DNA of 38,123 nt, from the IMG/VR virus record IMGVR_UViG_3300043036_000143. One strand, given 5' to 3'. The notes beneath the pieces are model-generated. The model searched no databases. It was not told the DNA's origin and saw nothing but the letters and a program-made list of their open reading frames with translations. Of this stretch, positions 996 through 31,400 are shown piece by piece. Origin of the DNA: a virus. A program made the position numbers and the translations under genes. The stretch's first letter is position 1, and every line of letters begins with the position of its first letter.

Positions 996-1043
996 TCATC
1001 ACAACACAACACAACACACCATAACTTGAATATACTCTTGAAC

Positions 1044-1787
1044 ATGAAAACTACCACTGTAAAAACACAAGCAAGAAATGAAAAGCGCGATCTACTCACA
1101 AGTGAGAATGCAAAGACAAGCAAGGGAGAAAACCTAGGCTTTCTCACTGGCATTCTCTACCTTGCGCCCGCCAATGAGAGCGGAAAAAACACCTGCCCTT
1201 TTGCGTCGACTGGTTGCGCTGCCGCTTGTCTATTTACGGCTGGGCGCGGGGCATTCGATAGCGTGCGGGAAGCGAGACTAGCTAAGACGTATTACCTATG
1301 GCAAGGCGTGAGTCACTTTGTGGACAATCTCGAGTTTAATATCCATGCCCTAGAACGGAAAGCTAAGCGTGAGGGATTAACTCCATGCGTGAGACTAAAT
1401 GGTACAAGTGACTTACCATGGGAAACAATGAAAGGAAACAAGAAAAAATCGATCATCGCGCTTTTCCCTCACGTGCAGTTTTATGATTATACTAAAAATC
1501 CATCACGCATGAAAAAATACCTACGCGGAGAGATGCCCGCCAATTACCACCTTACATTTTCACGTTCGGAATGTAATCATGAAACATGTCTTGAGATTCT
1601 CGAGATGGGCGGGAATGTTGCCGCCGTATTTGAAAAGATGCCGGAAATATGGTGTGGAAAAGAAGTAATTTCCGGGGATGATCACGATTTAAGATTTTTA
1701 GACAAAACTGGAGTAGTGGTAGGATTAAAAGCTAAGGGAAAAGCTAAAAAAGATCTCTCCGGTTTCGTGGTATCAGCCAATGATTAA
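1044..1787 (+). CDS. GP88-family-like protein with N-terminal Cys cluster (function unknown)
   Basis: The track ORF 1026..1787 starts at TTG. The first ATG (1044) follows the (ACAAC)n leader at 998-1025. Motifs TSKGENLGFLTGILYLAP, CPFASTGCAAAC, NGTSDLPWE and GDDHDLRFLD were recalled from memory as Pfam GP88-like. Confidence 0.7.
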   Translation: MKTTTVKTQARNEKRDLLTSENAKTSKGENLGFLTGILYLAPANESGKNTCPFASTGCAAACLFTAGRGAFDSVREARLAKTYYLWQGVSHFVDNLEFNIHALERKAKREGLTPCVRLNGTSDLPWETMKGNKKKSIIALFPHVQFYDYTKNPSRMKKYLRGEMPANYHLTFSRSECNHETCLEILEMGGNVAAVFEKMPEIWCGKEVISGDDHDLRFLDKTGVVVGLKAKGKAKKDLSGFVVSAND

Positions 1788-1800
1788 ATTATAAAAATTA

Positions 1801-1850
1801 GCCACTGAAGAGCCTCCAGGCATGAGGCGAAACGCCGCAAGGCGTATGGC
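1801..1850 (+). ncRNA. Type I hammerhead ribozyme HHR-1 (predicted cleavage between 1846 and 1847)
   Basis: Sequence parses as GCCA / CUGAAGA / GCCUC-CAGGCAU-GAGGC / GAA / ACGCC-GCAA-GGCGU / A / UGGC. The full invariant core is present, with 5-bp stem II, 5-bp stem III capped by a GNRA loop, and an open stem I. Confidence 0.9.
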
Positions 1851-1867
1851 AATGCCAATAGAACAAT

Positions 1868-2077
1868 ATGAACACAATCACTACTCAAAAAGCAATTCGC
1901 GCCCAATTTTGGGCATCTCACCCAGATCTTGAAGCTCACGCGCTTATGTGGAGCATCAAGACAGCTCCGCAAAATAGACACAACACAGACACGCGCACGG
2001 CGTTTTGTGACTATGTCGATTCCCTTGCCAAGTCTGGCATGATCTCCGAAAAACTAGCGTCACGCGCTACCTTGTAA
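1868..2077 (+). CDS. Hypothetical protein
   Basis: 69-aa ORF. Its ATG lies 21 nt downstream of the HHR-1 cleavage site. Confidence 0.65.
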   Translation: MNTITTQKAIRAQFWASHPDLEAHALMWSIKTAPQNRHNTDTRTAFCDYVDSLAKSGMISEKLASRATL

Positions 2078-2104
2078 AACAATACAACACAACACACAGA
2101 CAAA

Positions 2105-2356
2105 ATGAAAACTACTATTACAAAATCAGCAGCCATCAAACACGCTCGCCAAAACGTATCCTCACTGTCAATCTTTGGGGGGCAATACAGATTCGCAACC
2201 TACGACGCGAAAATGAACGCATGGTGGGAGCATGTCCCGAAACAATTCCATGCTGCCGCTTTCGACCGCTCGCAGGCACTTATTGATGCCGCCCGTGACT
2301 ATCTCGATTTGCCATGCGTGCAATATGACGGCGGCGCATGGATCGACTATGTTTAA
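2105..2356 (+). CDS. Hypothetical protein
   Basis: 83-aa ORF. The ATG is preceded by the CA-repeat leader acaacacaacacacagacaaa. Confidence 0.7.
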   Translation: MKTTITKSAAIKHARQNVSSLSIFGGQYRFATYDAKMNAWWEHVPKQFHAAAFDRSQALIDAARDYLDLPCVQYDGGAWIDYV

Positions 2357-2393
2357 ACCACACTACCACAGAAACCGTACACAGCATAAAACT

Positions 2394-2588
2394 ATGATCA
2401 CAGGAAACATGCAAATTTCAAACACAGAAAGCTTTCTTCATTCATGCAAACTTGCCATCTCGCATGAATTTAAAACGCGCCATTACAAGGCAATCGGGCT
2501 TTACACTCCAACAGAAAACGTGCGCGATGCAATCGCCATCATTCGCAGAATTCAGCCTAAAAACATCACCAAGCAATCCAAACCATGA
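2394..2588 (+). CDS. Hypothetical protein
   Basis: This is the distal part of track ORF 2232..2588. The ATG at 2394 is the first start downstream of the preceding gene, and the stop overlaps the next ATG (ATGA). Confidence 0.5.
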   Translation: MITGNMQISNTESFLHSCKLAISHEFKTRHYKAIGLYTPTENVRDAIAIIRRIQPKNITKQSKP

Positions 2589-2731
2589 ATACACCAACTT
2601 GCTCACTCGTCCGCCGTCCCATCCGCCGCAATCCATGGCGGAAATGGATCACCACCACCGCTGAAATCATCGGGGGAGTCCTCACGATTGCTCTACTTGT
2701 AACACTCACCCTCCTGTCCTTAGCACTATGA
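2585..2731 (+). CDS. Small membrane protein (48 aa)
   Basis: Hand translation gives MNTPTCSLVRRPIRRNPWRKWITTTAEIIGGVLTIALLVTLTLLSLAL, a basic N-terminus plus one hydrophobic helix. It has ATGA overlaps at both ends and is below the track length cutoff. Confidence 0.5.
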   Translation: MNTPTCSLVRRPIRRNPWRKWITTTAEIIGGVLTIALLVTLTLLSLAL

Positions 2732-2901
2732 CCACATTCACAGCACTATCCCAGCGCATCCGCGCCGCCGTATCCACTGCCGATCTCAAAGCTTTAGAAA
2801 AGCGATGTGATAGGCACTATGAGGCAGGCACTATCACACCGAGCGAGTTTTCCCGCTTAGATGGAATGATCATGGAACGCATCGCATTACTGAACCAATA
2901 A
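2728..2901 (+). CDS. Hypothetical protein (57 aa)
   Basis: Hand translation gives MTTFTALSQRIRAAVSTADLKALEKRCDRHYEAGTITPSEFSRLDGMIMERIALLNQ. It is ATGA-coupled to the upstream ORF. Confidence 0.5.
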   Translation: MTTFTALSQRIRAAVSTADLKALEKRCDRHYEAGTITPSEFSRLDGMIMERIALLNQ

Positions 2902-2926
2902 AACACAACACAACACAAATAAGGCT

Positions 2927-3244
2927 ATGATAACAATAACACAGAAAGATTACACAATCCTGCAGAAAATCGCCGAAAAAATTAATTCTGAAATCAAAGC
3001 TTACAATGAGGCTCATGATGTCGTCCACCAAGTCATTTCCGTCAGCGTAAGCCAGGACGATGATTTCATCGATCATTATGCGTATTTTGACATCGAAACA
3101 TTCAAAACCCACAGCTCGGATGAAGAATCATACGTCCATGATGCCATACGAGGCATTGCCAGACAACTTACCGATGCACTTATCACTGACACGATCGTAA
3201 GCTCTGGAGATGGGATCTTCACGGCGGTCTATAAGCTCATATAA
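2927..3244 (+). CDS. Hypothetical protein
   Basis: 105-aa ORF following the CA-repeat leader aaacacaacacaacacaaataagg. Confidence 0.7.
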   Translation: MITITQKDYTILQKIAEKINSEIKAYNEAHDVVHQVISVSVSQDDDFIDHYAYFDIETFKTHSSDEESYVHDAIRGIARQLTDALITDTIVSSGDGIFTAVYKLI

Positions 3245-3262
3245 CCCACTATCACGGAAGCC

Positions 3263-3445
3263 ATGAATGAAATCATAATTGACGAGCTTTATATCGCTCT
3301 CAGCGTATTAGAGCAACGAGAAATTGACCTCGCCATGCTAGGCAGGGTAGAGCATAGAAACGCCGTGAGACTGGCAATGCTGCCGATCAAACGAGAAATC
3401 AACAAGCTTGAGAATAGAGAAATTTACCCTGAAACAAGCCACTGA
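3263..3445 (+). CDS. Hypothetical protein; stop codon lies inside the HHR-2 core
   Basis: 60-aa ORF ending ...ETSH-TGA. The TGA at 3443-3445 is U4-G5-A6 of the ribozyme. Confidence 0.6.
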   Translation: MNEIIIDELYIALSVLEQREIDLAMLGRVEHRNAVRLAMLPIKREINKLENREIYPETSH

Positions 3446-3485
3446 TGAGCCTCCAGGCATGAGGCGAAACCCTGCGGGGTCTGGC
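3438..3485 (+). ncRNA. Type I hammerhead ribozyme HHR-2 (predicted cleavage between 3481 and 3482)
   Basis: Sequence parses as GCCA / CUGAUGA / GCCUC-CAGGCAU-GAGGC / GAA / ACCC-UGCG-GGGU / C / UGGC. It has the canonical GUC cleavage triplet and a UNCG-type loop on stem III. Confidence 0.92.
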
Positions 3486-3519
3486 AAGAGCCAAATAACA
3501 CAACACAACACAAGACAAG

Positions 3520-3795
3520 ATGCAAACGATAACAGGCAATACATACCCCGTAAAAGAAGCCATAAAGGCACTAGGCGGAAAATGGAACAAACTAGCCAAG
3601 GGCTGGGATGTTCCCGACGAGGTAGCAGATGAAGCGCGCGCCTTAGTCTCAGGCTCGCCAAGCCGTAGCATTAGCCACAGCTATGATAAAACCACATTTT
3701 ACCGCATGAACAGCGGAGCGGTGATTTACCGCAACAGATCTGGTATGTGTGAAGATGCGCCATGCTGCGGCTGCTGCGGCACAGATAGCCACTGA
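3520..3795 (+). CDS. DUF5710-like N-terminal domain protein with Cys-rich C-terminus; stop codon lies inside the HHR-3 core
   Basis: GNTYPVKEAIKALGGKWNKLAKGWDVP resembles, from memory, the N-terminal module seen on phage replication proteins. The C-terminus is CEDAPCCGCCGTDSH. The TGA at 3793-3795 is U4-G5-A6 of HHR-3. Confidence 0.7.
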   Translation: MQTITGNTYPVKEAIKALGGKWNKLAKGWDVPDEVADEARALVSGSPSRSISHSYDKTTFYRMNSGAVIYRNRSGMCEDAPCCGCCGTDSH

Positions 3796-3838
3796 TGAGA
3801 TCCAGGCAAAGATCGAAACGCCCTGCGGGGTGTATGGC
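3788..3838 (+). ncRNA. Type I hammerhead ribozyme HHR-3 (predicted cleavage between 3834 and 3835)
   Basis: Sequence parses as GCCA / CUGAUGA / GAUC-CAGGCAAA-GAUC / GAA / ACGCCC-UGCG-GGGUGU / A / UGGC. The core is intact, and stems II and III differ from HHR-1 and HHR-2 by compensatory changes. Confidence 0.9.
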
Positions 3839-3857
3839 ACAAGCCAACTCAAAATAT

Positions 3858-4100
3858 ATGATACTATACCAGAAAACAGAAGACCCCCTTGTAATTGTAA
3901 CAGATTCCAAAACGAAAGACGTTGAGACTAAAAAACTCACTGGCACTTATTTTCGGATCATTCCCCCCGCAAATGATCGCGTGAATTGGGTGTTAACTTG
4001 CTCAGAAATGCACGTTGACCGATGGGCAAGCGCAACAGATTCCACCATGATCATTTCCGAGAATCTAAGAAAACAACTTGTCTCTTTATTCTCATGCTGA
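3858..4100 (+). CDS. Hypothetical protein
   Basis: The upstream part of track ORF 3795..4100 runs through HHR-3, and the ATG at 3834 spans the cleavage site. The first ATG after cleavage is 3858 (MILYQKTEDPL...). Confidence 0.6.
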   Translation: MILYQKTEDPLVIVTDSKTKDVETKKLTGTYFRIIPPANDRVNWVLTCSEMHVDRWASATDSTMIISENLRKQLVSLFSC

Positions 4101-4411
4101 TCGACAACAAAATCGCGCTGATACAATCCGTTGCTGATGTCCTCGGGGTGAAACCTGAAGCTATCACTGGCAAGCGCAAACGGTTCGCTGAGGCTCTCGC
4201 CAGGCAAATCGTGATGACGTTGTGGAGTGAAGCACACTCGCTCCAGGACTCAGCCGAAATCGTAAACCGAACCCATCACACCGCAGCATTTTACGCACGT
4301 AAAAAGACTTATGAACGCTTGCACTATTGTAAGAAGTCAAAAGAGCGAATGCATAAGATACTGCAAAGATACTCAGAAATTATTCTTGAACAAACCGAAA
4401 CAAACCACTAA
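4094..4411 (+). CDS. DnaA domain-IV-like (Bac_DnaA_C-like) DNA-binding protein
   Basis: IALIQSVADVLGVKPEAITGKRKRFAEALARQIVMTLWSEAHSLQDSAEIVNRTHHTAAFYARKK follows the DnaA C-terminal HTH pattern (GK-R...AR...M......S...I......HT.V..A..K). Confidence 0.65.
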   Translation: MLIDNKIALIQSVADVLGVKPEAITGKRKRFAEALARQIVMTLWSEAHSLQDSAEIVNRTHHTAAFYARKKTYERLHYCKKSKERMHKILQRYSEIILEQTETNH

Positions 4412-4459
4412 AAAAACTCTTGTGCGGGAAATTCCGCACTATCACAACACCAAAATACA

Positions 4460-5038
4460 ATGCAATTAGAACACAGCACACCTGAATTGTTTACTGCCCT
4501 AGCAAAAATGCAGGGAGAAGTAGAAAACGCCACAAAAGGCTCGCTAAATCCACATTTCAAATCGAAATATGCGGATCTTGCGGAAGTCTTGAACACCGTG
4601 CGCCCAGTATTGGCAGCAAATGGACTATCAATCATACAGTCGCCCTCATTTGACGGTGCTATTTGCCACGTTACCACCACAATCGCCCACAGCGGTGGAG
4701 GGTATATCTTCGGCACTATGTCCTGTGTCCCTGCGAAAATGGACGGGCAGGGCGTAGGAGCGGCAACAACCTACCTTCGACGCTATTCGCTCGCCGCAGT
4801 CTGTGGAGTTGCCCAGGAGGACGATGACGGACAATCGGCAGCGCATAATCGCCCCGCAGTCTATCCGCTCATTTCCAGTGGTGAAGCTGCCAGAATTCGC
4901 GAAAACATCGAAGCTCTTGCTATCGACGAACCAGCATTCCTGAAACATTACGGAGTTACGGCAGTCGCACAGCTAACCACTGACAAAATCGCCAGCATCG
5001 ATAAAGCATTTGCAATCAAAGCTAAAGCAAAACCATGA
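4460..5038 (+). CDS. erf: ERF-family single-strand annealing protein
   Basis: ALAKMQGEVENATKGSLNPHFKSKYADLAEVLNTVRPVLAANGLS and TTYLRRYSLAAVCGV are typical ERF motifs. The gene is ATGA-coupled to the exonuclease gene. Confidence 0.85.
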   Translation: MQLEHSTPELFTALAKMQGEVENATKGSLNPHFKSKYADLAEVLNTVRPVLAANGLSIIQSPSFDGAICHVTTTIAHSGGGYIFGTMSCVPAKMDGQGVGAATTYLRRYSLAAVCGVAQEDDDGQSAAHNRPAVYPLISSGEAARIRENIEALAIDEPAFLKHYGVTAVAQLTTDKIASIDKAFAIKAKAKP

Positions 5039-5841
5039 AAAACGCAACTATTGAATACAACTTGGGCAGAGCGTATTACTCACGTTCCGCATCGCCGACG
5101 AACCTGTCAGCACCTGTCAGCAAATCACTATTATGGGATTTCAACCAATCACCCTACAAATGGCGACACAGCACAGGCAAAGAGTCGACCCGCGCGATGG
5201 ATTTAGGAACGCTGATTCATGCCGCGATCCTAGAACCAAACATTCCGCTTGATGTAATCGCAGCAGTATCGCCATTCTCCGACTTTCGCACTAAAGCCGC
5301 GCAGGAGTGGAGAGACGATGCACGAGCAATGGGCAAGATGATTGCCACAGATGCCGACATTCGCGTTGCTGGAGGGTGTGAAGCGGTCTTTTCCGAAGAC
5401 TATGTGCAACGCTTTGCAGGTAGCTATAAATCCGAGGTGGCAGTTTTTGCCACTATCGGGGCAACTGAGATTAAAGGCATGATTGATCTCGTGCCTGACA
5501 ATCTTGATTTGCTGGTAGACCTCAAAACTACCGCGAAAATCGGGAGTCTTCGGAACATTACCAACACTATCATCGACCGAGGTTATCACTGGCAAGCTGC
5601 GTTATATCTCGATCTGTGGAACGCTGCCACAGAAGAGAAACGCAAACGCTTTGTGATATGCTTTATCGAGGTGGATGCACCGCATGAGTCGGCATGGGTG
5701 GAAGTCTCACCCGAACTGATTGAGGCAGGGCGCATCGGTTACATGAACGCACTTGCGAAATGGCAAGCGTGCTGTGCTACGGACACATGGCCGCGCCAGC
5801 ATGAGGGGATTACCACTATCGAGAAACCCGCATACCTATAA
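5035..5841 (+). CDS. PD-(D/E)xK (RecB/Cas4-like) recombination exonuclease
   Basis: Motifs DLGTLIHAAILEP, GMIDLV, DLKTT (D/ExK) and YHWQAALY (QxxxY) are present. It sits immediately downstream of erf. Confidence 0.75.
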   Translation: MKNATIEYNLGRAYYSRSASPTNLSAPVSKSLLWDFNQSPYKWRHSTGKESTRAMDLGTLIHAAILEPNIPLDVIAAVSPFSDFRTKAAQEWRDDARAMGKMIATDADIRVAGGCEAVFSEDYVQRFAGSYKSEVAVFATIGATEIKGMIDLVPDNLDLLVDLKTTAKIGSLRNITNTIIDRGYHWQAALYLDLWNAATEEKRKRFVICFIEVDAPHESAWVEVSPELIEAGRIGYMNALAKWQACCATDTWPRQHEGITTIEKPAYL

Positions 5842-8210: not shown

Positions 8211-8436
8211 TTCGATGCTATTTGAACACACAGCAAGAAAGTCTTTTACGGCGGTAGTAGCGCACGAACGGGTGAAGAATACCGCAATGAGCGGAAAACG
8301 CAAGGATTATTTTTCAGGGGGTGAAAATATCCCCCAAGGTGCGCATCGTTGAGAGGCGTGAGGGATCTGCTGCCAGAATAGTATCAGAGAATCGGGTAAA
8401 TTCAAGCTTAGATATGGAGCAGGATCGGTATCATCG

Positions 8437-16511: not shown

Positions 16512-17030
16512 TCAGATTGTAAAGCGGATGCGTGAGCGGATCTTGGAAAGGTGCCGAGATTTCAGATAAACCCCACCTCCCTCTCTCGATCCTGCTGCGT
16601 CAGTGTTTCCTTCAGCTACTTTGACGTTGCCATCATCATCAGGAGATGATACAGCAATGCCGATATGGGAGAACGTAAAGACTACGATGTCGCCAGGGAG
16701 AATGTCACCACCATGCGGTTTCTTCGTATTAGTCGTCCTATCCTGTTCAAGTGACCAGTTCTCAAAGTCCCATGCGCCAGCGGTGCGAGGACGCTTAAAT
16801 GTCTTGGTCTGTTTGACTCCAGCGGATGCCATAGCTTCCCGCACTACCCAGCAAACGAAAGCAGCGCACCATGCCCATCCTTTCTTGGGGTTAAGCCATG
16901 TCGCCGCCTTGTATTGGTCAACTCGCTCGCCACAGTTCGTATTGGCAATCTCCCGAACGCCGACTTCCGCCTTGGCGATGCGAATGATTTCCTTCACGAA
17001 TGTAGTCATAGCTTCTTGATGATTTGCCAT
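16512..17030 (-). CDS. CHAP/NlpC-P60-type cysteine peptidase endolysin
   Basis: GWAWCAAFVCWVV (catalytic Cys context) and GDIVVFTFSHIGIAV (His) are present. The gene lies next to small membrane proteins. Confidence 0.75.
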   Translation of the reverse strand: MANHQEAMTTFVKEIIRIAKAEVGVREIANTNCGERVDQYKAATWLNPKKGWAWCAAFVCWVVREAMASAGVKQTKTFKRPRTAGAWDFENWSLEQDRTTNTKKPHGGDILPGDIVVFTFSHIGIAVSSPDDDGNVKVAEGNTDAAGSREGGGVYLKSRHLSKIRSRIRFTI

Positions 17031-23262: not shown

Positions 23263-23505
23263 TTATTTCATTGATTTACTTCCGCTGCATTTCCATTTTT
23301 TGCGGGATAGGTTATTCGGTGAATTAGGATCACTGCGCCAGTTGCCTTTAATAGCATTAGATCGAGCGCAATAGGCATCGCCTTTGGCAGTGCCAGGACG
23401 AATGCGATCACCACCGTCTGCGGCTTTACCTGCTTGCCCATACTTGATGGTTTTCTTACGACCAGTAGCTGGGTTTGTGATTACTTTCTTAAATCTCTTT
23501 TCCAT
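23263..23505 (-). CDS. Basic small protein (80 aa)
   Basis: ORF rich in K, R and G: ...GRKKTIKYGQAGKAADGGDRIRPGTAKGDAYCARS... Confidence 0.65.
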   Translation of the reverse strand: MEKRFKKVITNPATGRKKTIKYGQAGKAADGGDRIRPGTAKGDAYCARSNAIKGNWRSDPNSPNNLSRKKWKCSGSKSMK

Positions 23506-23931: not shown

Positions 23932-25998
23932 TTATTGTTCCATTCCTTGAGTTGTCATTCCACCCATTTCAGCAGGTGCTGTTCCAATGCGTCCAATCTC
24001 GGCGTTCTGAGCCTGTTGTAGCTGGAATTGATACTGCCCCATATACTTCTGCAAGCGAGCAGCAAAAGCCTCGTCTTGCTGAGCTCTAGCTGCAACATCG
24101 GGTTGCTGAACGTAAGCCTGAACCATCTGCATGGCAATTTGCGCTCCGTTTGGTTGTGCGGGAACTTCGATGCCAGAGAAGATCTTGGAAAGATCATCGG
24201 TGACGTTTTTCGCGATCTTCTGTTGTGCCTCCTCCACTGGTTGCAGGACGTAGTCAGCAAAGATTGGATTGATAGAAGATGCTGCGAACTCCAGTAGTTT
24301 GTTTACATCGAGAATGCCATTGCGATCCAGTTGGACAAGAGATACCATATTCTTCAACTGAGTCTCTGCTGTTTCTGGATCACTTGCCAAGGAGTCAAAC
24401 GATACCATAATTGAATAGTTCTCATCTGGACTACCCTTGGTCATCACTTGTGGATTGGGATTCCCTGTAACTTGGAAGAAGATTTCATCAGGTCCCATAC
24501 GTTGATACAGCTTCCATGCCATTGTGAGAACGTCTTTAACGTGGTCTAGGAACTTGCCGATATAATACTGTTGGCGTGCCGATGATAGAGGATTTGTAAG
24601 ATCAAGTCCAATAGCACGGTCTGCTTGTCCACGCATGGAAAGCTCGCTTTCTACTGAGCCGTCATCCCGTGGGGGAATAGGACCGAATGCAATTTCACCT
24701 AATCGGCGATACGGCACTCTACGTCCAGGACCCCAATCGGATGGTGGGCGACCAGCAGGGTGCATAATCGGAGGCAATGTTGCCAAAGACGCACGGTCGA
24801 TACGACTGTCACGTTCTGTCTTAATTTGCATCTGAGGACCACGGAGAATGTCAGAGAATGTCTGCACTTCATACATCCGCTTCTGGTCGTTAGCTAACCG
24901 AGTTACCACAAATGGATAGTCGTCGTAACCGTTGAGAAGTTCATGCTTGGCATAGCCATCTGTCTGCGGATGGAACACTGTGCAGTAAATACCCTCAGAA
25001 CCATCATCCTCGTCAATTAAACGTTGATACGCATAAACTACCATGACAAGATCGTTGTCGTCAGTGATTGGCAAGCGAGTCTGAGTCTTTACTTTCTCGC
25101 CATCAAGATACATGGAGTCTTTACCACGAAGTGTTTCAATAGCGTTATCTACCCATTTACGATCCCATCCTTCGTTTGCCACCTTTTTCTCAAGCTCTTG
25201 AGCTGTGAGGAATGTTCGCCAGAACATGTATGGTGCGCGTTGTGGATCTGAGATGTAAGATGGATACATCACCTCTCCATCGGGAGCGCAAGCATAAACT
25301 ACAGGGCAGTCAACAGTTTGGCGTGATAGCGGGATTTCAGCAACACCCATCTTGCGTAGGTCTTTGATTGCCTTCTTAGCTCGCTTAGTAGATAGGTCAG
25401 GAAATGAGTCTTGAAGCAACTCAATCAACATATCGTCGTCTTGCTCACTTAGAATCAACTCAACAAGATCAGGTGATGCTTGCTGAATTTGCTCAAGACT
25501 AACGCTTTGTAAGTAAGTGCGTTTCTCACGGTTCCAACCAACGTAGGTAACCATGATGCCTTTCTCCATGAGGTAGTTGCCACCAAGTTCCATCTGACGC
25601 TTGAAGTCGGGGATGTAGGATGCTCGCATCCATTTTAGGAAGCCAGAAACCACCGCTGCTTTTGGCATTGCTGCCATAGACGTTGGGAACGCTTTGATGT
25701 GAGAGCGAGACAACGCTTGGTCAAACAACGCAACATACATGTCAATACGCTCACCGACTACGTTTACCTCTTGGTCGGATGCGCCTTGCCACGGAAAAGC
25801 ATTAGCTCCGTTCTTGCGTAGGTCATCCGACTTGCCATCCCAGATGTTTCTGCGGTCGTTGTAAGAACGTAGGCAGGATTCAAAATAGTAATCTAGATCA
25901 ACTAGGCAGGTATCATAAGCATTAGATAATGCACCAATATCAGGCTTCTTGTCTAAATAAACAAGGGACTCATCTTCAATTTGTTGAATGTCATTCAT
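23932..25998 (-). CDS. Portal protein
   Basis: 688 aa, the second gene after terL (a small 86-aa ORF lies between them). The size and a Q-rich helical C-terminus are typical. The assignment rests on position and size. Confidence 0.8.
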   Translation of the reverse strand: MNDIQQIEDESLVYLDKKPDIGALSNAYDTCLVDLDYYFESCLRSYNDRRNIWDGKSDDLRKNGANAFPWQGASDQEVNVVGERIDMYVALFDQALSRSHIKAFPTSMAAMPKAAVVSGFLKWMRASYIPDFKRQMELGGNYLMEKGIMVTYVGWNREKRTYLQSVSLEQIQQASPDLVELILSEQDDDMLIELLQDSFPDLSTKRAKKAIKDLRKMGVAEIPLSRQTVDCPVVYACAPDGEVMYPSYISDPQRAPYMFWRTFLTAQELEKKVANEGWDRKWVDNAIETLRGKDSMYLDGEKVKTQTRLPITDDNDLVMVVYAYQRLIDEDDGSEGIYCTVFHPQTDGYAKHELLNGYDDYPFVVTRLANDQKRMYEVQTFSDILRGPQMQIKTERDSRIDRASLATLPPIMHPAGRPPSDWGPGRRVPYRRLGEIAFGPIPPRDDGSVESELSMRGQADRAIGLDLTNPLSSARQQYYIGKFLDHVKDVLTMAWKLYQRMGPDEIFFQVTGNPNPQVMTKGSPDENYSIMVSFDSLASDPETAETQLKNMVSLVQLDRNGILDVNKLLEFAASSINPIFADYVLQPVEEAQQKIAKNVTDDLSKIFSGIEVPAQPNGAQIAMQMVQAYVQQPDVAARAQQDEAFAARLQKYMGQYQFQLQQAQNAEIGRIGTAPAEMGGMTTQGMEQ

Positions 25999-28442: not shown

Positions 28443-31400
28443 TTATTCTGAATACAAGTTTTGTTTTTCGTCAAATTGTTTCGCCATGTTAATCAATTCA
28501 GCAGAGAACTCTGGATCACTAGATGCTTGGTGTGCTAGTGCTGTTGCTCCAGTTCTAGTCAAAAACATCTGCTTTGCCATTTGGTTGTATGCGTTATTGG
28601 CAGTGCCAGGAATAGCACTTTTAGCTAGAGCTGATTTAACCATATTGCTATTAATGCCAGATGAAAGCATTGCAGTGATAAATCTATTTCTGCTTGCATC
28701 AACCATGTTTTTAAGTGATACAATTACTGTTCCACCTTGTGGGCTTCCTATTACCCTAAAAGTAGATCCTGTTTTTGCAACATCAGCAATAGCATTTGCT
28801 TCAGCTGTAGCAGCCAAATCATAAAGGAAGTCAGCTTCTTCTTTACCAAGAACAGTTTGAAGTTTTTTAGCGAATGTAGTTACGTTGCCACTAGAAGGTC
28901 GATAATCATTCATGAATCTCTTTGTGTCAAAAATTGCCCTAAAAGGAACATTTGCATTTGGATCTCCACCTGAATAAGCATCAAGAAGCTCTCGCCTAAA
29001 ATCACCTTTGTAAAGATTCCTTGACTCTAGCGATGACTTGCTTAGTTGAGACATCGCATATTGAGTGTCTTTGATAGTGCTTGATGGAGACAATATTGAT
29101 TTTGAAAGAGCATCTGCATCAATGTTTTTGAAGTCTCCTTTTTGCGCAAGACTGAATATGGTTGACCGTGTTAGTGCATCTTCTTCTTTTTCTGCTTGAA
29201 TTCTCTTCGCGATCGTTTTTGCTAGAGCTTTTCTCTCAACTTCAGAAAGAGGTTTCCCCATTTTTTGTAAATCATCCATTGTAAGCTTGCTTGAACCAAG
29301 ATCACCAATGTTTTTGAGGTTGTTATTCAAATCAGAAATTGCTCTTAATTGAGCATCAGCTTGATTTCCGAAAAGAGCTTTAACCATGTTCTCATTTACA
29401 TCAACGCTTCTAGCACCTTTTCCTCGCAAACTTGGCTTAATGCCAATGTTATTCATGTATTCCAATTGAAGTAATCCAAGGATTCTATCAGCTTCTCCTG
29501 CTTTGCTAGGATCAAGCTGTCCAAGCTCACGAAGCGATTTGACAACTCTATCAATAGTAGCTGGTTCTTTTATTACTGCACTTACAATGTCTCTAGGTGT
29601 TTTTGATTTCTCACCAGCAGCTTCTTTCAAGACCGATCCTAAAAGATTTTTTTCGTAAGCGTTTCTTTCTTGAACCAATAGAGTGGTCTTGTCAAATTCA
29701 TCACCAAGATTTACTAGTGTTCCATTTGGCAGCTTAGCATTAATTCCACCGTAAATTTGTCTTCGCAATCCGCTTAATTCATTGGAAATAGCTACACCAA
29801 AAGCATCTTTGGTAGTTCCACCAACAGCATTATCTGGTCTAGCATCGCTAAATCGGCGGATAAAACCATCAAAAGATTTGAAATTTAATGGTTTATTGAT
29901 TGATTGGAGTTCTTCAACTTCTTTATTTAAATTATCAATTTGATTATTGGTTCTTAATTCTTCAGTCTGAATCTCTCGCAATCGAGTTTTTGATATTTTT
30001 TTATTTATATTCTTTTCTTTTGATAAATCTCTAAGATATTTCTTAGAGTTCCTAATCGCAGATTGAGCATCAGCAATTAAAACTGGAGCGTCTCTAATTC
30101 TAACCAAGTCATCTTCTATTCTTTTTACAGCAGCTTGATCCATTGATCCGCCCGCATTAACGCTTGATTTGATTCTTGGAAGCATTTTAAGCATTTCTCT
30201 TGCTTCCATCTTAAATCCTCCAGCATCAGCAATTTGAGAAAGGCGTTCATATTCTTGATTTTTCAAGTCTGTAATTTTTGTTTCTGCATCTTTGATAGAA
30301 TTAAACAAAATATCACCAAGCTCATCAGTATCACTTAACGCCCCTCTTGTCTGGCGATCTAGCGATCCTTCAATAAGTCTGGCGTTTCGTCCAGTTGCTG
30401 AAGCAATCTGTTGAGCTAAAGCTTTTTTTTGCTCCTGTTTTTGCAATGCAATATCTGCATAGTTGTTTGGATTTGCTGGAATGTTTGTTTTCCAATCGTC
30501 CGATAGTCGCAGCAAGGTTTCTTGAGTTCTACGAGCAGACGATGCAATGTTAGATTTTGGATATATTCCAGCAAGTTGAGATTGAGTCTCCATTCCTTGT
30601 GGACCAGCTAACTTAGCAGCAAATGGTGTGCTTACTTCACCTACTGCTCGACCTTGCTTCGCTGCCAGTTTCTGCTCTCTAACCATCAAGTTCTCTGCTG
30701 ACCTCTCAAGGTTTTTAGCAAACTCATTAACAAATTCATTACCTATTCTTGACGCTCTAAATGTTGGAATAGCTATATCAGTAACACCACCAATGCCAGC
30801 ACCAATTACAGCTTGAGTTCCACGTCTTGCGATTGTTCCGCCAATATCAGGTTTAAGACCATAAGCGTATCTTAATCCTTCGTCCATAAGCGCACCTGTT
30901 GCTGCACCAGCAGCGGAAGATACTCCAACTGCTGCTACTGGGCTTTTTGTTGTCCCAAGTGTTCCTAGAAACGTTCCAATTTCTACTGCTGTAGAAGGAA
31001 TTTCAGCGGCTACTCCTGCAAGCTCTGCAGCTCCCTTGTTCAATGTAGTTTTTACACTTCCATCAGGTTGAGTGATCAAGAACTCAGTATTCCCAGCAAC
31101 ATCTATTGGTCTTACATTTCCTTCTCCAAAGTAATTTGTTAGTAGTTGCGCTTTACTTGTTGGATCGTAAAGAGTTTCTAATTGCCCCATTAAAGAAGTT
31201 GGTAGCTTTTCAGCTTCAACACCTTTGCTTGGTGGCAAGTTAAAACGCTCACCAATAAGTTCACGTTTTCTTGCTTGTTGCTGCTCAACAGAAGGCATAT
31301 TATAGATTGGCGTAGGCATACCCATGCCACCTTTCCCACCCATGTTCATGTAGTTAGCTGTAGGACTAACTATTGGCGCACGAAGCTCTTCACCAATTGC

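Follow-up and report, generated by a model that had tools for sequence, protein, structure and literature searches.

Natural hammerhead ribozymes need a tertiary contact that joins stem I to stem II for fast cleavage at cellular Mg2+ concentrations, and hammerheads with tertiary contacts ligate appreciably. 5'-terminal stem-loops stabilize E. coli mRNAs, and the glmS ribozyme yields a 5'-OH product that RNase J1 degrades. Perreault et al. (2011, PLoS Comput Biol; PMC3088659) found stem I/II pseudoknots in about 40% of hammerheads, in all three types, showed by mutation and compensation that rapid cleavage at 0.5 mM Mg2+ requires them, and reported phage-associated hammerheads that occur in threes between genes.

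The window, by which we mean the whole 38,123-nucleotide stretch of viral DNA that was analyzed (IMG/VR record IMGVR_UViG_3300043036_000143), holds three elements that by their sequence are canonical type I hammerheads, with cleavage predicted in each (Table 1). As in prophage and phage type I hammerheads (Rfam CL00010; RAGATH-1, RF03152), the core follows the scheme C3 U4 G5 A6 N7 G8 A9 ... G12 A13 A14 A15.1-U16.1 H17, here realized as CUGAAGA or CUGAUGA ... GAAA with an A15.1-U16.1 pair and the triplets GUA, GUC and GUA (H17 not G); stems II and III are closed and stem I is open; and the ribozymes are intergenic in a phage early operon, which encodes a GP88-family protein, an ERF recombinase, a PD-(D/E)XK nuclease and a DnaA-C-like HTH protein. 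Unlike in RAGATH-1, the upstream hairpin of that motif is not evident here, and the Rfam scores lie far under the gathering thresholds. With the set of Perreault et al. the locus shares the arrangement of phage-associated hammerheads in threes between genes and a proposed pseudoknot of the kind that occurs in all three types: as in the type I human C10orf118 hammerhead, for example, loop II would pair just beyond the open end of the neighboring stem, with stems I and II parallel. The helix proposed here differs, however, in having 3-4 bp, all or nearly all G-C, beside a stem I of 4 bp, and in that the pseudoknot sequence is also the stem I sequence, such that the tail can pair with either GGC. 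Like ompA-type 5' stem-loops and the RiboJ hairpin (PMC6206723), a hairpin predicted at these sites would be flush with the processed 5' end of the mRNA, directly upstream of the translation start region, and like that of RiboJ it would be a terminal hairpin generated by hammerhead cleavage. In contrast to the RiboJ hairpin, which is separate, longer and appended, it is predicted to have 4 bp and to reuse a strand of stem I.

Table 1. Hammerhead elements of the window and the sequences that follow their predicted cleavage sites
Feature	Position	Strand	Basis or remark
Hammerhead 1, type I	1801..1850	+	sequence; weak Rfam match; helices covary in homologues
Hammerhead 1, stem I	GCCA 1801-1804 with UGGC 1847-1850	+	sequence
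Hammerhead 1, core	CUGAAGA 1805-1811; GAAA 1829-1832	+	sequence
Hammerhead 1, stem II and stem III hairpin	stem II 1812-1816 with 1824-1828; stem III 1832-1845	+	sequence
Hammerhead 1, predicted cleavage	after A1846	+	sequence
Hammerhead 1, loop II GGCA	1819..1822	+	proposed pseudoknot with UGCC 1853-1856, 4 bp
UGGC-AAU-GCCA (TGGCAATGCCA)	1847..1857	+	stem I 3' strand and proposed pseudoknot partner (U)GCC 1853-1856; alternative 4-bp hairpin
Hammerhead 2, type I	3438..3485	+	core CUGAUGA 3442-3448; predicted cleavage after C3481
Hammerhead 2, stem I	GCCA 3438-3441 with UGGC 3482-3485	+	sequence
Hammerhead 2, loop II GGC	3456..3458	+	proposed pairing with GCC 3490-3492, 3 bp; flanking position A.A
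UGGC-AAGA-GCCA (TGGCAAGAGCCA)	3482..3493	+	stem I 3' strand, linker, proposed pseudoknot partner; alternative hairpin
Hammerhead 3, type I	3788..3838	+	core CUGAUGA 3792-3798; predicted cleavage after A3834
Hammerhead 3, stem I	GCCA 3788-3791 with UGGC 3835-3838	+	sequence
Hammerhead 3, loop II GGC	3805..3807	+	proposed pairing with GCC 3843-3845, 3 bp
UGGC-ACAA-GCCA (TGGCACAAGCCA)	3835..3846	+	stem I 3' strand, linker, proposed pseudoknot partner; alternative hairpin

At gathering thresholds, which range from 48.5 to 56.3 bits, Rfam detects no hammerhead in the window; run in E-value mode, its hammerhead models give 18.6-21.5 bits, low scores that we attribute to models ill-fitted to the short stem I and the loop II layout found here. 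Despite these sub-threshold scores, 49 homologues support the hammerhead fold through numerous compensatory changes in stems II and III: three of four stem II pairs and four of five stem III pairs change on both sides, as does one pair of stem I. With stems II and III closed and stem I open, 100%, 93.5% and 100% of the cells are paired in these homologues, and over all cells of the fixed-register alignment the proportion is 91%, compared to 15-35% when the partners are slid. This condensed alignment (A2) replaced a full-length alignment made with MAFFT and RNAalifold (A1), in which stems II and III were misaligned and stem I alone was recovered.

The homologues come from pattern scans of viral contigs, in which the tail was never specified, and from one genome scan and one metagenome scan, both of which returned mostly chance matches and added at least about one and nine hammerheads, respectively. 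A structural filter left at least 333 distinct type I hammerheads, 331 of them with a tail long enough for the counts given below. The hammerheads were called by regular expression and helix filter, not by a calibrated model, and since the scan patterns fixed either stem I or loop II, every homologue count is a count among the matches listed.

The earlier note had placed UGGC-N3-4-GCCA right after all three cleavage sites, and direct reading of the sequence confirms it: the first base of each element directly follows the cleavage nucleotide of its hammerhead (GUA/U at 1846/1847, GUC/U at 3481/3482 and GUA/U at 3834/3835). In the window as a whole, TGGC-N3-4-GCCA occurs seven times against 1.37 expected from shuffles, none of 100 shuffles reaching seven, and three of the seven occurrences are these cleavage sites. 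The other four are TGGC-N3-GCCA palindromes away from the hammerheads (5788-5798, 23385-23395, 24948-24958 and 28598-28608), two of them identical (TGGCAGTGCCA). On the minus strand the pattern CTGANGA...GAAAC is matched a fourth time, at 16605-16642, where ORF 16512-17030 is located.

The downstream GCC is complementary not to one but to two GGC triplets, that of the stem I 3' strand and another in loop II. The earlier note had considered pairing of the GCCA with the stem I UGGC and missed the loop II triplet, which is invariant. Hammerhead 1 has the stem II loop CAGGCAU, hammerheads 2 and 3 follow the same overall plan, and all three share AGGCA in loop II despite differing stems II (GCCUC/GAGGC versus GAUC/GAUC). 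Complementarity between loop and tail covers GGCA:UGCC in hammerhead 1 and GGC:GCC in hammerheads 2 and 3, in which the core of the putative pseudoknot is just three invariant G-C pairs.

Homologous phage hammerheads show which of its two possible partners the tail goes with. The check proposed in the earlier note, whether they retain the second GCCA, comes out in favor of retention: GCC is found 3-6 nt after UGGC in all three window ribozymes and, among the matches listed, in 56/56 homologues that have both UGGC in stem I and GGC in loop II, although the linkers between UGGC and GCC vary (AAU, AAGA, ACAA, AAAU, AAAC, AUA and others). When stem I is GCCA/UGGC and loop II lacks GGC, however, the tail GCC is present in only one of ten hammerheads among the matches listed. 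With other stems I the tail GCC accompanies a loop II GGC in 48 of 89 cases and occurs in 22 of 176 in its absence, again among the matches listed. The corresponding tables among the matches listed are 56/0/1/9 for the UGGC class (Fisher 2.7e-10) and 48/41/22/154 for other stems I (odds ratio 8.2, p = 1.7e-12), and without a loop II GGC the UGGC stem I brings no excess of tail GCC at all (1/10 versus 22/176, p = 1); because the sequences are related and the patterns fixed loop II or stem I, these p-values are not to be taken as independent-sample probabilities. Across the 331 type I hammerheads among the matches listed, then, a GCC in the tail goes along with GGC in loop II rather than with a particular stem I.

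Individual lineages show the same association of loop II with the tail. Tail GCC goes together with loop II GGC behind other stems I in UGGGA-AGCCA, GCGGA-AGCCA and UAGGA-AGCCA; at L655 the loop UAGGC is complementary to the tail GCCUA; at L157 the loop GGGA goes with the tail UCCU, and the hairpin is absent; and in another lineage loop II GGAUA is accompanied by the tail UAUCC. A helix of at least 4 Watson-Crick bp between loop II and tail can be formed, among the matches listed, in 34/63 members of the UGGC class versus 4.6 expected, in 55/93 of the GCGG class versus 19.6, and in 42/118 of the UGGG class versus 20.1. Three UGGG-class hammerheads (L542 -96, L545 -8026 and L546 -2888) have loop II GUGGGAU and the tail AUUCCCCA; in them loop II repeats the stem I 3' strand, and, just as in the window's clade, either of these two can be the partner of one tail CCCA.

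Within that clade the three core G-C pairs are invariant under the pseudoknot and the hairpin alike, and thus uninformative either way. The pair that flanks GGC/GCC on the loop II side is A-U in 21, G-C in three, U-A in three and mismatched in 22 of the 49 sequences of alignment A2; on 53 sequences the counts are A-U 26, U-A 3 and G-C 3, with a permutation p of about 0.002 that, given related sequences and patterns that fixed loop II or stem I, is likewise not an independent-sample probability. One pair of the hairpin varies, that between U1 and the A of GCCA: 46/49 homologues keep it, and it is never compensated. With a GCCG/CGGC stem I (L014, L130) the tail is still GCCA, so that the U-A pair is lost, and at L147 the tail is GCCU. 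The hairpin of the window's clade is fully confounded with the pseudoknot and has zero compensatory changes, and the limited covariation seen in this clade would support the loop II-tail pseudoknot only. The A of GCCA itself is near-invariant, yet it faces an A of loop II in most members of the clade (U-A in nine, other combinations in 40), and classes in which stem I begins with a base other than U likewise often have this A behind the pseudoknot partner; it is fully explained by neither the pseudoknot nor the hairpin.

We therefore read the downstream GCC(A) as one strand, that of the 3' tail, in a short pseudoknot whose other strand is the invariant loop II GGC, a reading based on sequence comparison to which we would give a probability of roughly 70%. 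The main cause of GCC conservation is thus probably an already described hammerhead feature, the loop II-tail pseudoknot; the remark in the earlier note that the element had not been seen described as part of hammerhead motifs does not hold for this cause, a pseudoknot between loop II and the 3' tail having been reported before (PMC3088659). In the sequence of events that we envisage, the 4 bp of stem I would pair during transcription, and the tail GCC, emerging 3-4 nt further on, would then pair with the loop II GGC and tie stems I and II side by side, allowing fast cleavage. Because the tail would contact loop II in the active fold, the conserved GCC would be part of the active ribozyme. After cleavage the 3' product, which only 7-8 bp split over two short helices would keep in place, would depart and probably fold into the UGGC/GCCA hairpin at its 5'-OH end; since loop II and stem I share GGC in this clade, the tail can also fold back on UGGC.

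That UGGC could pair with the downstream GCCA as well as with the upstream one was a claim of the earlier note that fares well in folding predictions. The isolated hairpins are predicted at -2.9 (1847-1857), -4.2 (3482-3493) and -4.2 (3835-3846) kcal/mol, and for the leading 30 nt of the 3' product the hairpin is the minimum free energy fold (-3.7, -5.0 and -5.0 kcal/mol), its pairs having probabilities of 0.8-1.0, so that on these models it is likely to form after release of the 3' product from the ribozyme. The hairpin and the active fold are mutually exclusive, the former taking UGGC from stem I and GCC from the pseudoknot. The further suggestion that the hairpin competes with the active fold agrees with modeled nearest-neighbor energies of the precursor, in which the hairpin fold nearly matches or surpasses that with stem I: -19.6 versus -19.7, -18.8 versus -17.5 and -19.1 versus -17.0 kcal/mol for the three hammerheads, with no pseudoknot term. 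This modeled near-tie would be expected to count against a view that admits the pseudoknot only, given that an optimum for cleavage alone would avoid it. Taken together, the interpretation in the earlier note is partly supported. An alternative hairpin that uses a strand of stem I finds no mention in Perreault et al. (PMC3088659) nor in the further literature searched.

A class of hammerheads in which the two partners of the tail are separate also bears on the hairpin, and lends indirect support to the switch and the 5'-end protection that the earlier note put forward as possible roles. The CCGC/GCGG class was collected without reference to the tail and comprises 93 members among the matches listed, of which 52 can form a hairpin of at least 4 Watson-Crick bp from product nucleotide 1-2, compared to about 10.4 expected. 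Their tails contain CCGC in 47/93 cases among the matches listed, versus 7-11 for control 4-mers and 0 for GCGG. The start of CCGC is sharply peaked at product nucleotide 9, which corresponds to GCGG-N4-CCGC, and it is found, among the matches listed, in 27/56 sequence clusters and with 38 different loops. Variants carry the complement of their own stem I, as in ACGGGAA...UUCCCG and UGCGGA-AGC-UCCGCA. As at the three window sites, the 5' strand of stem I recurs 3-4 nt behind the stem I 3' strand, at product nucleotides 9-12 (L183, L229, L268, L273, L297 and others), and this copy overlaps the pseudoknot partner of loop II, in 19/31 cases, for example in GCGG-AUAU-CCGC with loop II GGAUA:UAUCC. 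Unlike in the window's clade, where the two coincide, CCGC is not the full pseudoknot partner in the GCGG class, and the hairpin is therefore seen independently there. The UGGG class, in contrast, shows no excess of product hairpins (13/118 versus 9.4 expected, among the matches listed), which rules out the product hairpin as a general rule for phage type I hammerheads and makes it class-specific rather than universal. GCGG-N4-CCGC is present, besides the loci just named, at L257, L269, L280 and about 40 other viral loci; no description of it at the new 5' end of phage hammerheads was found in the literature searched. A different use of the stem I 3' strand is seen at L176 (plus strand, 1526 and 1975), where in two type I hammerheads it is a Shine-Dalgarno sequence (AGGAGG, then UAAAAA...AUG), and where stem I would thus mask the ribosome-binding site until cleavage or refolding.

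These data can be used to weigh what else, besides the pseudoknot, may have shaped the tail. An addition to the pseudoknot rather than an alternative to it, and one that we regard as possible though somewhat against the odds, is that the tail GCCA has been selected twice over, first for its part in the pseudoknot of the uncleaved RNA and then for forming the 3' arm of the product hairpin. The hairpin would then undo both contacts of the product, stem I and the pseudoknot, drive its release and block re-ligation, and the downstream mRNA would keep a flush 5'-OH hairpin hindering 5'-end-dependent decay of the RNase J or RNase E type. Consistent with such a double role, the hairpin is the predicted fold of the 3' product and the two precursor folds are mutually exclusive and nearly isoenergetic; the GCGG class has its excess of product hairpins, its variants following their own stem I, and its CCGC peak overlapping the pseudoknot partner, all among the matches listed; given a loop II GGC, the tail GCC is found in 56/56 of the UGGC class versus 48/89 elsewhere, among the matches listed; and the A of GCCA is not accounted for by the pseudoknot. 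RiboJ provides a synthetic precedent, its terminal hairpin being a suspected mRNA stabilizer (PMC6206723). On the other hand, the hairpin undergoes no compensatory change in the window's clade, as L014 and L130, which keep GCCA, and L147 with its GCCU illustrate; nine of ten UGGC-class hammerheads without loop II GGC have no tail GCC, among the matches listed; the UGGG class speaks against a general feature; and a stem I of 4 bp should release its product fast anyway.

A hairpin-only reading after the framing of the earlier note, with GCCA conserved through its pairing with UGGC and loop II not involved, appears very improbable to us. It is true that a perfect 4-bp complement with a loop of 3-4 nt is present at all three sites and that the U-A pair is kept in 46/49 homologues, but the same missing tail GCC in nine of ten hammerheads with the same stem I and no loop II GGC (among the matches listed) is hard to accommodate, as is its occurrence next to many different stems I if a GGC is present in loop II. 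Moreover, covariation was found just for the loop II partner, and pairing with stem I cannot account for an invariant loop II AGGCA beside a freely varying stem II. Still less credible is that the repeat has no function and was either inherited around a duplicated ribozyme cassette or created by a target-site-like duplication of GCCA. The GCCA of the 5' strand and that of the tail are indeed direct repeats flanking the ribozyme, and many copies are clearly paralogous; however, GCC has stayed fixed while linkers and stems II and III diverged freely, and in other lineages the tail element changes along with loop II. Target-site duplication as the origin of GCCA...GCCA was rejected, as the identity ends at four bases and the tail follows loop II elsewhere.

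If the pseudoknot reading is right, the three ribozymes should be drawn with GCC in the active fold, and a construct or search model that ends at UGGC misses it. The design is unusually self-similar, with stem I, loop II and tail using the same three bases, and leaves room for a latch of dual use. Our wider and equally tentative proposal is that such a latch may be found in many of the phage type I hammerheads whose stem I is very short. The loop II-pairing tail would serve a second time, as 3' arm of a hairpin with the 3' strand of stem I, and a single intramolecular refolding after cleavage would break both ribozyme contacts. Were this true, cleavage would be irreversible and the downstream mRNA would be capped by a flush 5'-OH hairpin, and in the window's clade both partners would have been merged into one GCCA, since loop II and stem I share GGC. 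The over-representation of the stem I copy in GCGG-class tails suggests that selection in phage operons may act on what becomes of the new 5' end of the 3' product, and such selection would bear on the long-open question of what purpose intergenic phage hammerheads serve.

A blastn search with window positions 1000-4500 against 50,697 phage records gave no matches, and a search with the tail protein returned only distant matches, at no more than 35% identity, to Synechococcus, Klebsiella and Pseudomonas phages. Eighty viral loci that encode relatives of the upstream GP88-family protein contained zero type I hammerheads, and the ribozymes are thus not tied to the GP88-family gene. On the minus strand, positions 8329-8365 match the abiF RNA motif of Rfam (41.8 bits versus a gathering threshold of 37, E = 1.8e-4); the ORFs downstream of it on the same strand have 104 and 68 aa, neither being an obvious AbiF protein.

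Closer to the ribozymes, the TGA stop codons of ORF 3263-3445 (3443-3445) and ORF 3520-3795 (3793-3795) are contained in the core CUGA of hammerheads 2 and 3, respectively, so that a ribosome ending the upstream gene would sit on the ribozyme core. The leaders 3' of the ribozymes are rich in CA repeats, as in AAUAACACAACACAACACAAGACAAG (window 3494-3519), which precedes the ATG at 3520 and has no obvious Shine-Dalgarno sequence, and many homologues, such as L014, L015 and L130, have CA-rich leaders in their tails as well. By its sequence, a CA-rich leader of this kind suggests an unstructured leader and a host with Shine-Dalgarno-independent initiation. Finally, ATATGATACTATACCAGAAAACAGAAGA (window 3855-3885), which lies 3' of hammerhead 3 within a gap of ~175 nt that precedes the next sizeable ORF at 4022, is near-identical across many related contigs (L002, L014, L021, L027, L036 and others), and a promoter, a small ORF or an RNA are candidates for what it encodes or specifies.
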